IMG/VR virus record: IMGVR_UViG_2734482779_000005
Span: 1-42,026 of that record
Reading direction: 5' to 3' (one strand)
Length of the DNA: 42,026 nt
From: a virus
Lineage: Duplodnaviria; Heunggongvirae; Uroviricota; Caudoviricetes
A model generated the notes under the pieces. That model was given only the letters and a program-made list of their open reading frames with translations. It was not told where the DNA came from and searched no databases. The translations under genes and the position numbers were made by a program. Below, piece after piece: positions 9,452-41,650 of this stretch (the first letter of the stretch is position 1; each line of letters begins with the position of its first letter).

Positions 9452-10284
9452 ACAGTTTAACGGCAAATAACCGTTTGTCGCAACAGCTGGTGGTCAGCGA
9501 CGCTGACCACCTGTTGTTACGGCATGAATGCAGATTACCAAATCACCTGGCTGTAAGTAACCACAGAGAACTTTACCTGACTGTGGGGGGCGAGTTGTGC
9601 AGGAACTTAACCGCTGGTTTCGTGACGGAAGAGGACTTTATGTTCATGTTATTCGTTGGGAGCCAGAAACACAGCGCGTTATCTATCTTCGCAAAGACTA
9701 CCCGCATGAGTGCTTTAGTCCTTTGTGGAAATTCAGGCGTGATTTTGTTGAGTGTGAAGGACCACCAGCACATTGATTCTGCCATTCCGGGACGTTACAC
9801 TGTTCAGGCACCTTATAAAGCGGGTGCCGGGATTGGCGTCCTGGAAATGTTATCGGCGATATATGACGCGCCAGCGTCTTTTTTATCGTCTGCGTCTGTG
9901 CACACCCAAATTATGGTGGGCTGGACGGGGGCACCGAAAGGTGCGCCGGTTTCCGATAACGCCGGTTACGCCAACCCCGTTCAGTTCACCACCAGCGAAA
10001 TTGGCGTTTCCGGTGGTGAAGGTAATTCACTGTTATCGGAGGCTGCCATCATGGCTACTGTCCCAGCCCTCACTCGTCTGAATGATGAAGACTTACATAA
10101 ACTCAGTTATGTAACAACTGCACTACGTGCTCTGCGCAAGGTAACTCTTTCGGATCCGCAGGCGCATCAGGTTTTGGTAGAAACCCTTCTTAACTTGCAG
10201 GCTGAACGTATTCGTCTGGCGGATAAGGCTAATTTTCATATTCACCGTCTCCTGAATATCAGCGGAGGGCATCGTCATGCTTAA
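9448..10284 (+). CDS. Hypothetical ORF (278 aa), coding status uncertain
   Basis: Longest ORF in the interval, but the N-terminal half is low-complexity and an alternative frame (GTG 9597 to tga 9776) gives a more protein-like 59-aa product; see findings. Confidence 0.25.
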   Translation: MNSLTANNRLSQQLVVSDADHLLLRHECRLPNHLAVSNHRELYLTVGGELCRNLTAGFVTEEDFMFMLFVGSQKHSALSIFAKTTRMSALVLCGNSGVILLSVKDHQHIDSAIPGRYTVQAPYKAGAGIGVLEMLSAIYDAPASFLSSASVHTQIMVGWTGAPKGAPVSDNAGYANPVQFTTSEIGVSGGEGNSLLSEAAIMATVPALTRLNDEDLHKLSYVTTALRALRKVTLSDPQAHQVLVETLLNLQAERIRLADKANFHIHRLLNISGGHRHA

Positions 10285-34577: not shown

Positions 34578-35622
34578 ATTTCAGCGCCCGACGCTGGCAG
34601 AAAATATCAGTATGCTCCGTAACGATTTATTCGCCAGGCTGGACGTCAGCGACACGCTCCGGCGCATGGATGAAGACGTGCGGGCAAAGGTGTATGCGGC
34701 GGCGCTGCATACGGTCTACGGTTACATCGATTATCTGGCAATGAACATGCTGCCTGACCTGTGCGATGAGTCCTGGCTGGCGCGACATGCTGCGATGAAA
34801 CGGTGTCCGCGCAAGGGGGCCACGGCTGCCAGCGGGTATATGCGCTGGGAAGGTGTCAGCGATGGCCTGAAGGTGACCGCCGGGAGTGTTATTCAGCGCG
34901 ATGACCTGGTGCAGTACACGGCAACTGCCGATGCAACCAGCTCCGGTGGTGTCCTGCGCGTGCCGATCGCCTGCTCAAGTGCAGGCGCGGTCGGTAACGC
35001 TGACGACGGTACGTCATTAATCCTGGTCACGCCGGTGAATGGTCTGCCGTCTTCCGGCGTGGCAGATACACTGACAGGTGGATTTGATACTGAAGAGCTG
35101 GAAACGTGGCGCGCCCGCGTCATTGAGCGGTATTACTGGACGCCTCAGGGCGGGGCTGACGGGGACTATGTCGTCTGGGCTAAAGAAGTTCCCGGCATTG
35201 CCCGCGCATGGACATACCGACACTGGATGGGAACGGGGACTGTCGGTGTGATGATTGCCAGCAGCGACCTGATTAATCCCATTCCGGAAGAATCAACGGA
35301 AACGGCGGCAAGGCTGCATATCGAGCCACTGGCCCCGGTGGCAGGCTCTGATTTGTATGTGTTCAGGCCGGTGGCACATACGGTGGATTTTCATATCCGT
35401 GTGACGCCGGACACACCGGAAATACGGGCTGCCATCACCGCGGAGTTGCGTTCGTTCCTGCTGCGTGATGGTTATCCGCAGGGAGAACTGAAGGTGTCAC
35501 GTATCAGTGAAGCGATTTCCGGTGCGAACGGGGAATACAGCCATCAGTTGCTTGCACCGGCGGACAATATCTCCATTGCGAAAAACGAACTGGCGGTACT
35601 GGGGACGATTTCATGGACGTGA
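34564..35622 (+). CDS. Baseplate J-like protein (Mu gp47-like)
   Basis: 352 aa; positional and size. Confidence 0.65.
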
Positions 35623-36197
35623 CAAACGATGATTACATCCGCCTGTTATCGGCACTGTTGCCGCCCGGTCCGGCGTGGTCAGCCAGCGATCCGGCGATTG
35701 CCGGTGCGGCACCGTCATTAACCCGTGTTCATCAGCGTGCGGATGCCCTGATGCGGGAGCTGGATCCGCGCACCACCACTGAACTGATAAACCGCTGGGA
35801 GCGTCTGTGCGGTCTGCCGGATGAATGTATTCCGGCAGGGACGCAGACCCTTAGACAGCGTCAGCAACGGCTGGATGCGAAGGTTAATCTGGCGGGCGGC
35901 ATCAATGAGGATTTTTACCTTGCACAGCTTGCTGCCCTGGGCAGACCAGACGCCACCATCACGCGATACGACAAAAGCACGTTCACCTGCTCATCTGCCT
36001 GTACTGACGCGGTGAATGCGCCGGAATGGCGGTATTACTGGCAGGTCAACATGCCAGCCGCCACCAACACCACCTGGATGACATGTGGCGATCCCTGTGA
36101 TTCCGCGCTGCGCTTCTGGGGGGACACCGTTGTCGAGTGTGTTCTTAACAAACTCTGCCCGTCGCATACCTATGTGATTTTTAAATATCCGGAGTAA
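35613..36197 (+). CDS. Tail protein, Mu gp48/YmfQ-like (DUF2313)
   Basis: 194 aa; matches the e14 YmfQ-type size and position immediately before the tail fibre gene. Confidence 0.6.
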
Positions 36198-36200
36198 TCC

Positions 36201-36848
36201 ATGCATCGTATAGACACGAAAACCGCGCAGAAGGATAAGTTCGGCGCGGGTAAGAACGGTTTTACCCGTGGTAACCCCCAGACCGGCACGCCTGCCACCG
36301 ATCTGGATGATGACTACTTTGACATGTTGCAGGAGGAGCTTTGCAGCGTTGTGGAGGCATCCGGTGCCAGCCTGGAGAAGGGGCGGCATGACCAGCTGCT
36401 TACCGCGCTTCGTGCGCTGCTGTTAAGCCGCAAGAATCCGTTTGGCGATATCAAATCGGATGGCACGGTGAAAACAGCTCTCGAAAACCTTGGTTTGGGA
36501 GAAGCGGCGAAAAGGGATGTGGGCACAGGAGATAATCAGATACCGGATATGGGAGCATTCGCTTCTGGTTCGGGATGGTTCAGGCTACCAGGTGGATATA
36601 TTGTTCAGTTTGGCACTTTTTCAGGAAACACGACCCGCTTTATCAGTGGACACTTCCCTATACCATTCCCTAATCAACCGCTTGTTTCAGTCAGTGTCAT
36701 GTCTGATGCCGTTCAGTCAGAACCGTCGAATCCTGCACCGCTGGTTTTATCTGTAAATTTTGAACATATCAGTAATTCAGCGTGGCGTGTGGCAATCAGT
36801 GATATCTCTCAACAATACAGATTCAGTTATATTTCGATAGGACGGTAG
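36201..36848 (+). CDS. Tail fibre protein with invertible C-terminal receptor-binding region (current orientation)
   Basis: 215 aa; the crossover site lies at codons ~97-101 (…NLGLGE…), so the C-terminal ~115 aa belong to the invertible segment. Confidence 0.65.
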
Positions 36849-36850
36849 AA

Positions 36851-37291
36851 ATGCAGAAATATATTTTCAGTGCTGATAAAAATGCGTTTTTCCCTGTGGA
36901 GCTTAAAATTGCTTATCAGGAAGCGGGGAAATGGCCTGATGATGGAATCGAAATTGACGACACTGTTGCCGCCGAATTTATGAAGGAAGCACCAGAAGGA
37001 AAATACAGAGGTGTCATCGACGGAATGCCAGCATGGATTGATATTCCACCGCCAACTCATGAGGAACAAATTGCCGCAGCCGAACTGGAAAAGCAGCAAT
37101 TGATTAATCAGGTCAACGAATACATAAACAGTAAGCAATGGCCTGGTAAAGCGGCGATTGGTCGCCTGAAAGGTGAGGAACTGGCGCAATATAATTTGTG
37201 GCTGGATTACCTGGACGCACTGGAACTGGTCGATACTTCCGGTGCGCCAGATATTGAATGGCCTACGCCTCCGGCAGTTCAGGCCAGATGA
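36851..37291 (+). CDS. Tail fibre assembly protein (Tfa, current orientation)
   Basis: 146 aa; MQKYIFSADKNAFFP… and C-terminal …WPTPP… are typical of Tfa chaperones. Confidence 0.7.
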   Translation: MQKYIFSADKNAFFPVELKIAYQEAGKWPDDGIEIDDTVAAEFMKEAPEGKYRGVIDGMPAWIDIPPPTHEEQIAAAELEKQQLINQVNEYINSKQWPGKAAIGRLKGEELAQYNLWLDYLDALELVDTSGAPDIEWPTPPAVQAR

Positions 37292-37865
37292 CATCCGGCG
37301 CGGTGCTGGTATCTGTTGCCGTCACCGCGTCAATGTAATCCAGCACAGCGTTAAGTCGGGTGGTTTCTGCCTGCGTCAGCTTCCGCCCGGCCTGCAATTT
37401 CAGTTGAATCAGACTGATGGAAGCCATTGCAGTATCAATCAGTGACTGACGCTGTGCTTCTGCCGCGTCTACTGCGGCGCAATGCTGTGCCTCAGTATCG
37501 GTCACCCATTTCTCACCATCCCATTTATCGAATGGCGTTAACGGGGCGATAGTGGTTGTATTTTCAGGGTAATCACCCGGAGCTGTGATTTCTTTTGATT
37601 CTCCTGTTTCAGTGCTATATACCGTTTCACCACGGTGGTCTGGCACATATACCCATGAGTTAAAATCTGCAGAACGGCAGATTACATAACCAGCTTTATA
37701 TGAGTCAGGAGCATCTAAACAGGAGCATGCCGGAATGCCGACACCCACAGCAAGATATTCAGTTGATGTGAAAATATATTCCCGTGTTTCACCATCATAG
37801 TTATATACGGTGATTTCTCCGTTGTTTATTGCGTAGCCGTCTTTCCCCAAAATAGCTTGTTCCAT
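37263..37865 (-). CDS. Alternative tail fibre assembly protein (Tfa', inverted orientation)
   Basis: 200 aa on the opposite strand within the invertible segment; C-terminus …VIWPELPEA is Tfa-like. Confidence 0.65.
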   Translation of the reverse strand: MEQAILGKDGYAINNGEITVYNYDGETREYIFTSTEYLAVGVGIPACSCLDAPDSYKAGYVICRSADFNSWVYVPDHRGETVYSTETGESKEITAPGDYPENTTTIAPLTPFDKWDGEKWVTDTEAQHCAAVDAAEAQRQSLIDTAMASISLIQLKLQAGRKLTQAETTRLNAVLDYIDAVTATDTSTAPDVIWPELPEA

Positions 37866-38333
37866 TTATGCAGTCCTCACAATGTAGTTAAATGCAATGT
37901 TGCGCGGGCGAGATTCATCACCACCGCTTGGCATCGATGTCAGCCCTGATGACGAACCAGTCCATCCATTGGCTGGACGGTTCATAAATCCTTCACCCGA
38001 TGTGTAATATTTCTTCGCGTAGATAGATGTTGTTCCTGGCACGCCACCAGCAGTTCCCCCGACTGCGCCAACGTCATCATGAACGTGCGACAAGTTTTGA
38101 CTGTTTTGATGTGAAAGCAGTGCGCGCCCACTATCGGCACCGCGCCCATCATCCCAGCCACGAATAAACTCACCACGTAAATCAGGCAATTTATTTGTCG
38201 GGTAAGCCTTTGCCAGTTCCGGGTATTCTTCAGGAGAAAAAGCCGCACCATTGCATTTCAGCCAGCCTGTTGGCGGAGTGGCTGAAGGCCACGGAACAGG
38301 CACACCAACGGGTAATGCCGAACCTTCTCCCAA
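37866..38333 (-). CDS. Alternative tail fibre C-terminal segment (promoterless, silent in this orientation)
   Basis: Reading frame continues open into the right crossover site; …PVGVPVPWPSATPPTGWLKCNGAAFSPEEYPELAKAY…LPDLRGEFIRGW… resembles the Mu/P1 fibre variable-domain pattern. Confidence 0.6.
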   Translation of the reverse strand: MGEGSALPVGVPVPWPSATPPTGWLKCNGAAFSPEEYPELAKAYPTNKLPDLRGEFIRGWDDGRGADSGRALLSHQNSQNLSHVHDDVGAVGGTAGGVPGTTSIYAKKYYTSGEGFMNRPANGWTGSSSGLTSMPSGGDESRPRNIAFNYIVRTA

Positions 38334-38409
38334 ACCAACCTTTCAAATATTTTTCTGAATCAGGTGATATTTCGCCTCTTCTCCTGTTTTTACAACAGGA
38401 GAAGCACTC

Positions 38410-38973
38410 ATGATTTACGGGTATGTTCGTGTATCAACAAATCATCAGGATACAGAGTTGCAACGTCTTGCACTTGAGTCAGCTGGCTGTGAGCGAATTT
38501 ATGAAGAATATGCCAGTGGCAGAACAGCTAATCGCCCTGTGTTAAAGGAATTAATTTCGGTGATGAAAAGTGGAGATGAGTTGATTGTCTGGAAGCTAGA
38601 TCGGATAGGGAGAAATGTGCTACATGCGCTATTGATGTTTCAAAATCTGCACGAAAAAGGCGTTAATTTTCGGAGTATTACAGATGGTGTAGACCTGAAA
38701 ACAGCAAGTGGTCGCTATAATTTCCGTAATATTCTTTCTGCTGCGCAGTATGAATCTGATTTGAATAGCGAGCGAACTTTAGCTGGTTTGGCTATTGCCA
38801 GATCCAAAGGCCGGATTGGTGGGCGTAGACCGAAGTTTAGCGACGAGCAGTGGCAACAGATGGGAGCGCTCATAGCGGCAGGGAAATCACGGCGTTATGT
38901 TGCACGTATCTATAACGTTGGGCTATCAACCCTATATAAACGATTTCCTGTTACTGGCATTCAAACGAAATAA
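38410..38973 (+). CDS. pin: Serine DNA invertase (Pin/Gin/Hin/Cin family)
   Basis: 187 aa; N-terminal MIYGYVRVSTNHQDTELQ with catalytic-serine context and C-terminal HTH; adjacent to the invertible segment. Confidence 0.85.
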   Translation: MIYGYVRVSTNHQDTELQRLALESAGCERIYEEYASGRTANRPVLKELISVMKSGDELIVWKLDRIGRNVLHALLMFQNLHEKGVNFRSITDGVDLKTASGRYNFRNILSAAQYESDLNSERTLAGLAIARSKGRIGGRRPKFSDEQWQQMGALIAAGKSRRYVARIYNVGLSTLYKRFPVTGIQTK

Positions 38974-39116: not shown

Positions 39117-39365
39117 TTAGTGAACAAACCACTCGTCAGCAGATTCCCAGGTATCTTTCAGAGTCTCCTGAACAAAAGTTTTTGCAGAATCCTTATCTGC
39201 GGTGCGTGTAACAGAAAGGCCATCGTTGCTGGTGGCTTTTACGATCACCTCTACATCGTCATAACGTTTACTGATGCGTCGGGTTAATTCTTCCTTTAAC
39301 GCATCCACAGCACCGGTTGGCATTTTAGTCATTTTTTCTTTGGCTATGCAGATTTCAATACGCAT
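39117..39365 (-). CDS. dinI: DinI-like DNA-damage-inducible protein
   Basis: 82 aa; MRIEICIAK…[11 protein letters not shown] parallels E. coli DinI (MRIEVTIAK…TWESADDWFV). Confidence 0.8.
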
Positions 39366-39380
39366 AAAAGTCCCTCTATA

Positions 39381-39424
39381 CTGTGTTTGTATACAGTATT
39401 ATTTTTAACTGTATGGATAAACAG
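39381..39424. promoter_or_regulatory. Two LexA (SOS) boxes upstream of the dinI-like gene
   Basis: CTGTgtttgtatACAG (39381-39396) and CTGTatggataaACAG (39409-39424), both matching CTGT-N8-ACAG. Confidence 0.65.
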
Positions 39425-40524: not shown

Positions 40525-40612
40525 TACACGACCTCGTTATTTCGGGTTCCCATAAAACGTGGGAACCTGTGCGGGAACCTAACGCGAGAAAAATAGCCTG
40601 AAATGTTCAAAA

Positions 40613-41650
40613 ATGCACGATAATCATGAAACACAAAAAATTAATCAAACCAGCGTGATGCCTGAAAAAACTGGTGTTTACTGGAATTCTCGGTTTAGCA
40701 TTGCTCCTATGCTCGACTGGACGGACAGACATTGCCGCTATTTCTTGCGTCTGCTTTCCCGCAGTACGTTGCTTTATACCGAAATGGTGACCACAGGGGC
40801 GATTATTCACGGTAAAGGTGATTATCTGGCGTACAGTGAAGAAGAACATCCGGTAGCGTTGCAACTAGGCGGTAGCGATCCGGCGGCGCTGGCGCAGTGT
40901 GCAAAGCTGGCAGAAGCGCGCGGATATGATGAGATCAACCTGAATGTCGGCTGCCCGTCTGACCGGGTGCAGAACGGCATGTTTGGTGCGTGTCTGATGG
41001 GTAATGCGCAGCTGGTTGCCGACTGCGTGAAAGCGATGCGCGATGTGGTGTCGATTCCGGTGACGGTGAAAACGCGTATTGGCATCGACGACCAGGACAG
41101 CTATGAATTTCTCTGCGATTTCATCAATACCGTTTCCGGCAAAGGCGAGTGTGAGATGTTCATCATCCACGCACGTAAAGCCTGGCTTTCGGGGTTAAGC
41201 CCGAAAGAAAACCGTGAAATCCCGCCGCTCGATTATCCGCGTGTGTATCAACTGAAGCGTGACTTTCCGCATCTGACAATGTCGATTAACGGTGGTATCA
41301 AGTCGCTGGAAGAGGCCAAAGCACACCTGCAACATATGGATGGCGTGATGGTCGGGCGCGAGGCGTATCAGAATCCGGGTATTCTGGCGGCGGTAGACCG
41401 GGAGATCTTTGGTTCCTCGGATACCGATGCCGATCCGGTGGCGGTAGTGCGCGCCATGTATCCGTACATTGAGCGTGAACTCAGCCAGGGGACGTATCTC
41501 GGCCATATTACCCGGCATATGCTGGGTTTGTTCCAGGGTATTCCTGGCGCGCGGCAGTGGCGGCGTTATTTAAGTGAAAATGCCCATAAAGCGGGTGCTG
41601 ACATTAACGTGCTGGAACACGCGCTCAAACTGGTGGCGGATAAGCGTTAA
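40613..41650 (+). CDS. dusA: tRNA-dihydrouridine synthase A (5' end supplied by the prophage)
   Basis: 345 aa; …NLNVGCPS… and TIM-barrel Dus family features; a second divergent copy of its first ~40 codons lies at 1071-1193. Confidence 0.9.

Follow-up and report, generated by a model that had tools for sequence, protein, structure and literature searches.

Does the fibre locus towards the right end of a 42,026-nucleotide stretch of viral DNA (IMG/VR record IMGVR_UViG_2734482779_000005, class Caudoviricetes; the whole stretch is called the window below) encode an inversion switch that joins one constant fibre part to either of two ends? The preliminary description of this DNA proposed a Pin-type invertible tail-fibre segment, and our analysis agrees: the gene order, the sites and the invertase match those of the e14 P, Mu G and P1 C segments, and related prophages occur in both orientations. 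Based on these results, we consider it very probable that the locus is a switch of the e14 P, Mu G and P1 C type, carried by an intact e14-like and SKA5-like prophage at dusA.

The 15-bp core TTGGTTTGGGAGAAG is present at 36490-36504 (+) and 38324-38338 (-), that is, as an inverted pair, and no further copy was found elsewhere in the 42-kb window with up to two mismatches allowed. Two core matches were obtained in 0 of 100 shuffles, so the pair is not expected by chance. Extension of the core to the 26-bp format of the Gin/Hin family delimited two sites with the 12+2+12 layout of Mu gix, which bears out the inverted gix/hix-type pair proposed previously; the crossover in the fibre gene, at codon 97, agrees closely with the earlier estimate of about codon 100 for the left site. 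The central dinucleotide is AA at both sites when they are read in a common sense, and matching central dinucleotides are a requirement for inversion. The left site equals the left pix site of the K-12 prophage e14 letter for letter, and the 15-bp core is likewise identical to that of e14 pix. More than two crossover sites were not found in the window, either with the 15-mer at up to two mismatches or in a 12-bp half-site search; with just two sites in the window, the locus does not have the layout of a multiple-inversion system (Min of p15B, shufflon).

In the present orientation, the fibre gene consists of a constant N-terminus (36201-36489), whose first 100 or so amino acids are nearly identical to K-12 StfP, and a variable C-terminus with a gp53-like_C domain (36490-36848). 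The oppositely oriented open reading frame (ORF) that adjoins the right site has no ATG, and its listed TTG start falls inside the site; it encodes, as had been suggested, a different C-terminus, which proves to be of the Collar instead of the gp53-like_C type. In-silico inversion of 36490-38338 places the 97 constant codons in frame with this collar-type C-terminus and gives an uninterrupted ORF of 253 amino acids, after which the second chaperone gene comes next. Directly downstream of each alternative C-terminus lies a Caudo_TAP gene (Tfa, lambda gpK-like, PF02413), so that each orientation does have its own Tfa chaperone; the two genes converge with an overlap of 29 bp. The preliminary description recommended a comparison of both C-termini with known receptor-binding domains; the analysis revealed similarity of the collar-type end to the tip of T4 gp37 (2xgf) and to short tail fibres, and a weak similarity of the gp53-like end to another short tail fibre. 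The second Tfa had no match in a sequence search of the PDB, and none of the named NCBIfam models matched the fibre or chaperone parts. For annotation, the value of these data is that a "promoterless" ORF and a "truncated" fibre can be read as two halves of one switchable gene. A promoter-like match (TTGATA-16-AATCAT, 9/12) aimed at the silent fibre end was noticed inside the start of the invertase gene, at 38437-38410 (-); it is probably due to chance, because the number of such matches in the region is below the shuffle expectation.

Flipped and native junctions were sought in complete Escherichia coli genomes with a query of 600 bp across the invertase-side junction. The flipped junction was found over at least 80% of the query in 12 complete genomes, eight of them 95-98% identical, and the native junction in 17. 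A prophage of the same kind sits at dusA in E. coli 1217KP; it is collinear over both junctions with the flipped form of the window, whereas its alignment to the unflipped form is interrupted at the 15-bp core. In this sister prophage (NZ_CM173879.1, locus L008 4872-7885), an IS66-family element splits the invertase gene, and the copy is therefore frozen in the collar-type orientation. The prophages of strains CFSAN061769 and 19-5 are of the same type, with an intact invertase and the gp53-like half-cassette in the silent position. Judged by these genomes, the segment inverts at the population level: related dusA prophages are found in both orientations, with breakpoints at the core. The shortness of the inverted repeat (15-20 bp) and the exactness of the breakpoints argue for site-specific rather than homologous recombination.

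By analogy with homologous systems, the invertase would bind the two inverted 26-bp sites as dimers, cut both of them at the central dinucleotide and, by rotation of half of the complex, flip the 1.85-kb segment. The fibre promoter, the start codon and the first 97 codons would stay fixed. In the present orientation, the constant part would be made with the gp53-like C-terminus, followed by its Tfa, and after inversion with the collar-type C-terminus, in which case the other Tfa would come next. A lysogen could then release two kinds of particles with different receptor specificity. The coordinates of the features are given in Table 1.

Table 1. Features of the fibre locus and its neighbourhood (window coordinates).
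Feature	Position	Strand	Characteristics
Mu gp48/YmfQ baseplate gene	35613-36197		Upstream neighbour of the fibre gene
Fibre gene, present orientation	36201-36848	+	ORF of 215 aa; PF21882 (gp53-like_C), E = 2.5e-8
Left 26-bp crossover site	36478-36503		CTCTCGAAAACC / TT / GGTTTGGGAGAA; within the fibre gene, codes ..LENLGLGE..
Tfa chaperone for the expressed C-terminus	36851-37291	+	PF02413 (Caudo_TAP), E = 2.4e-34
Second Tfa chaperone, silent in the present orientation	37263-37865	-	PF02413, E = 5e-33; 88% identical to K-12 TfaE
Silent alternative C-terminus	37866-38336	-	Collar domain (PF07484) and HxH motif; adjoins the right site
Right 26-bp crossover site	38325-38350		TTCTCCCAAACC / AA / CCTTTCAAATAT
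Two adjacent leader hairpins	38363-38404	+	First, 38363-38376; second, the palindrome 38378-38404
Small serine DNA invertase	38410-38973	+	187 aa; divergent Pin/Gin-like clade; PF00239 (Resolvase) and PF02796 (HTH_7)
Equivalent of the Fis-bound recombinational enhancer of cin, gin and hin	38428-38499		Gene nt 19-90; by position only (P1 annotates the enhancer at cin nt 19-90)

Among the known systems, the P segment of e14 is matched in its gene order (ymfQ-stfP-tfaP-tfaE-stfE-pinE), in the StfP-type N-terminus, the core and left site described above and TfaE, and in its length of about 1.8 kb. Its inversion has been observed directly in K-12 cultures (PMC4272514; PMC12529663). The differences from e14 concern the invertase (54% identity to PinE), the C-terminus now expressed together with its Tfa, both of which represent another cassette (66% and 53% identity over whole proteins), and the prophage itself, which is complete here and located at dusA, not at icd. 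The Mu G (Gin) and P1 C (Cin) segments share with our locus the constant N-terminus, the alternative C-termini, the paired chaperones, the 26-bp sites with a 2-bp crossover and a small serine invertase beside one site, the latter with a gapless alignment to Gin; however, the invertase is 51-53% identical to theirs, and both the fibre (215 or 253 aa) and the segment are shorter here, the fibre much so. The enzyme also differs from Gin and Cin in the residues of the regulatory helix E and of the Fis contacts. Phage SKA5 has an invertase with 99.5% identity, the same leader, right site, tail operon and dusA-type integrase, but a different variant takes the place of its silent half-cassette.

The invertase gene lies directly to the right of the segment, where a Pin-family serine invertase had been expected, and is intact. 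Its product aligns without gaps to Gin (3uj3) over residues 1-181 (E = 8.5e-57), and a mutated catalytic serine, which the preliminary description had named as a possible objection to the switch, can be set aside: Ser9 is kept together with the other catalytic residues (Y, R, R, D, R, R, E, R). The DNA-recognition residues G-R / S-T-x-Y-K are also retained, with STLYK as the recognition helix. Since this helix and the site core are conserved, cross-recognition of sites with Gin, Cin, Hin and Pin is plausible. Identity to Gin, Cin, Pin and Hin-like enzymes is 50-55%, and NCBIfam gave sub-threshold matches only. On sequence grounds, the enzyme is not a PinE orthologue, given the identity of 54% and its place in a separate clade with an invariant helix-E signature of its own. 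Searches with tblastn and at the protein level returned 1,797 database proteins at E <= 1e-30, the best 120 of which are 77-99% identical, with more distant members (65-72%) in Morganella, Erwinia and Kluyvera; the enzyme falls into a protein cluster of 401 members at 90% identity, the representative of which is 99% identical. In most relatives from other genera with enough upstream DNA, a pix/gix-like site was found beside the gene and its partner at a distance of 1.5-3.3 kb, and by this token the clade as a whole is predicted to do the same inversion job.

The clade differs from the classical enzymes in the core that controls their activity. In Hin numbering (the residue number in the window plus 1), the substitutions L67I, I78F, F104Y, F105N, H107R, M109I, L112A and M115Y are invariant in the clade, which thus bears the signature Y-N-F-R-x-I..A..Y in place of F104-F105-F106-H107-x-M109..L112..M115 of Hin. 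F106 and all catalytic residues are retained, as is F88 in the closer branch. The altered positions are those that control the dimer-to-tetramer switch in Hin, where F105N promotes Fis-independent inversion (PMC4513852); Hin M115 corresponds to Gin M114, the position of the classical Fis-independent mutant, which the 3uj3 sequence carries as M114V. Basic residues at Hin positions 47, 48 and 51, together with Q151, R154 and L155, are reported to be uniquely conserved in invertases that depend on Fis and the enhancer (PMC3798978). The enzyme of the window has K, E and S at the former three positions and Q, A and L at the latter three, and hence lacks the full residue set of Fis dependence; positions 48, 51, 151, 154 and 155 vary freely across 115 clade members. 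The invertase of mEpX1 (NC_019709.1, locus L007 4501-5049) is a mosaic, with residues 1-65 of the classical Gin/Pin type and the rest of the clade type, and its DNA at the enhancer position is also of the classical Gin/Pin type. This natural chimera suggests that a classical N-terminal third and a clade-type core are compatible.

Because the helix-E changes are invariant, F105N makes Hin Fis-independent and the Fis/enhancer-contact residues are variable, we propose, as a speculation to which we assign a rather low likelihood, that the activity of the clade might not be gated in the classical way by a Fis-bound enhancer, and that control might instead lie in a different internal lock combined with very low translation through a hairpin that buries the Shine-Dalgarno sequence. 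If true, a relaxed topological selectivity could account for the swapping of identical cassettes between unrelated prophages exactly at the crossover sites. The enhancer of the classical systems has two Fis sites in the 5' part of the invertase gene. In a simple-consensus scan for Fis sites in this region, the classical genes themselves scored modestly, and the register of the Fis core is uncertain by 1 bp. The synonymous-site profile, drawn from few diverged sequences, showed a shared dip at codons 1-16 and no such constraint at the distal site.

The preliminary description had pointed to a palindrome within 38355-38400, in front of the invertase gene, as a possible additional regulatory or recombination site. 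The palindrome is real, although it lies slightly further to the right (38378-38404), and of the two proposed roles the regulatory one is the more probable. It has 11-bp arms and a 5-nt loop, and the Shine-Dalgarno sequence AGGAG (38397-38401) is part of the 3' arm of the stem, 8 nt before the ATG. RNA folding of 38366-38425 gave -17.3 kcal/mol (z = -4.0). The hairpin is kept across six genera with one compensatory pair (C-G to U-A), and the stem is invariant in invertase relatives from Kluyvera, Trabulsiella, Pseudocitrobacter, Shimwellia and Apirhabdus, in which the spacer and the loop vary. The hairpin is lacking in the more distant branch of the clade, as well as in gin and cin, and PinE has a weaker version of it. 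We regard a translational brake on the invertase, acting by burial of the ribosome-binding site, as the most likely role of the palindrome, and the conserved hairpin would probably keep expression of the enzyme very low. Two further candidates were rejected. A third recombination site at the palindrome would need an AAACC-NN-GGTTT core, which is missing; the spacing is unusual as well, and none of the rearrangements has its end at this point. A LexA box has the form CTG-N10-CAG, and the palindrome reads CTG-N9-CAG.

The palindrome might instead be a DNA site bound by the invertase, either an operator or accessory site by which the enzyme regulates itself, comparable to res II and III of resolvases, or a third crossover site. 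The hexamers at its two ends (TTCTCC...GGAGAA) are the same as the outer hexamer of the crossover half-sites, and the compensatory change is predicted by a DNA palindrome and an RNA hairpin equally well. Yet this hexamer is also simply the complement of a Shine-Dalgarno sequence, and a Hin-like invertase gene with an unrelated leader likewise pairs UCCUCC with its own GGAGGA. The hexamers are 13 and not 14 bp apart around a centre without the AAACC-NN-GGTTT core, none of the relatives has a rearrangement that ends at the palindrome, and the palindrome is invariant whereas the inner half-sites of the relatives vary. Furthermore, the C-G to U-G changes in the neighbouring 5-bp hairpin are neutral for pairing in the sense-strand RNA and do not fit a DNA palindrome. 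A DNA site is in our opinion unlikely, and we retain the RNA hairpin as the more likely explanation.

Several points weigh against a switch that is active in this particular prophage. The evidence for inversion comes from related prophages, at the population level only; CCTTTCAAATAT, which forms the outer half of the right site, makes a poor half-site; the enzyme of the window is missing several residues on which the activation of Hin by Fis depends; neither scoring of Fis motifs nor synonymous-site profiles identified a recombinational enhancer; and no convincing sigma-70 promoter was found upstream of the invertase gene, in a scan whose total number of matches was below the chance expectation. 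The locus could accordingly be read as a frozen relic, in which the sites and cassettes remain and the enzyme is inactive or unexpressed, or the right site too degenerate. The missing promoter, a Shine-Dalgarno sequence buried in a hairpin of -17 kcal/mol, the weak half-site and the precedent of 1217KP, with its invertase split by IS66, would all suit such a relic. On the other hand, the invertase is of full length, has a complete set of catalytic residues and belongs to a cluster of 401 close relatives, relatives found in both orientations keep the sequence of the right site and the leader, and the remainder of the prophage is 97-99% identical to SKA5, which was deposited in GenBank as a complete phage genome. 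In the light of these data, a relic is highly improbable. A different objection concerns not the inversion but its beneficiary, which might mainly be the host: one of the fibre variants, produced by the prophage, would mask a receptor in the outer membrane and block superinfection by other phages, as has been reported for the StfE2 of the homologous e14 segment after PinQ-driven inversion (PMC12529663). The constant part and the collar-type C-terminus of our locus are indeed homologous to StfP and StfE. However, the C-termini are not the same as in K-12 (61% and 66% identity over whole proteins), the fibre belongs to the complete tail operon of an apparently intact prophage, for which late, lytic expression is expected, and no sequence feature speaks for expression in the lysogen. 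We therefore consider a benefit mainly to the host very unlikely and favour a switch that would change the host range of the phage.

The segment has also moved between phages. All of its 1.85 kb recur with 99.9% identity in a P2-like prophage of E. coli CFSAN051542 (NZ_CP020835.1, locus L002 2501-4354), between equivalent sites. This prophage differs in its flanks, which are unrelated, and in its invertase, which is Hin-like, of the Salmonella Hin/Fin type known from P2-like prophages, and is encoded at the other end of the segment; because the constant fibre part there is P2-H-like, it is the collar-type end that is expressed. The similarity stops at the right crossover dinucleotide and within the left site, which suggests a recent exchange of the whole cassette between prophages at the crossover sites. 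Klebsiella and Salmonella phages possess a 1.85-kb unit with the same borders, and other phages have one half alone. Within the tail region, only 37545-38148, comprising the 3' part of the alternative C-terminus and the 5' part of its chaperone, does not align to SKA5, by which measure the half-cassettes are exchanged independently of each other. Modular exchange of fibre ends has been known for a long time (Sandmeier, Iida and Arber; Haggard-Ljungquist), and the sharing of cassettes among phages fits it. The sharing also shows that both C-termini serve as real fibre tips.

The locus is embedded in a prophage, and about 28 kb of the window aligns to Escherichia phage SKA5 (OR670062) at 94-99%. 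The early region of SKA5 is lambdoid, its head HK97-like and its contractile tail Mu-like, and its integrase is of the dusA type. To the right of the invertase gene lie a DinI-like gene (39117-39365, -), which converges on it, a tyrosine integrase gene and then dusA. A 107-bp stretch at 1068-1174 matches the 5' end of dusA (40610-40716) with 83% identity; it is probably the displaced original 5' end of dusA and marks the left prophage junction. The prophage would span roughly 1.2-40.6 kb, or about 39.5 kb. The LexA-box consensus is CTGT-N8-ACAG, and TACTGTGTTTGTATACAGTA (39379-39398), just upstream of the DinI-like gene, fits it. In the early region, two Rfam matches above the gathering score were found on the plus strand of window 9808-9996, namely the Hfq-binding RNA isrK (9808-9884) and the C4 antisense RNA (9909-9996), which suggests an antisense immunity module of the P1/P7 type; between 36 and 39 kb, Rfam gave no family match.

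As a tail-fibre switch, the locus brings nothing new conceptually: it is another host-range switch of the e14/Mu/P1 type, and the genome of a nearly identical phage is publicly available. What goes beyond the textbook, as far as the sequences indicate, is limited to the hairpin in the leader and the divergence of the invertase at its control residues. The enzyme predicted to flip the segment represents an unstudied branch of the invertase family, common in Enterobacteriaceae, which uses classical sites and differs at the positions of the Fis/enhancer lock that are known from mutagenesis of Hin and Gin. This clade could be a natural experiment in the control of serine invertases and could supply genome engineering with compact enzymes.

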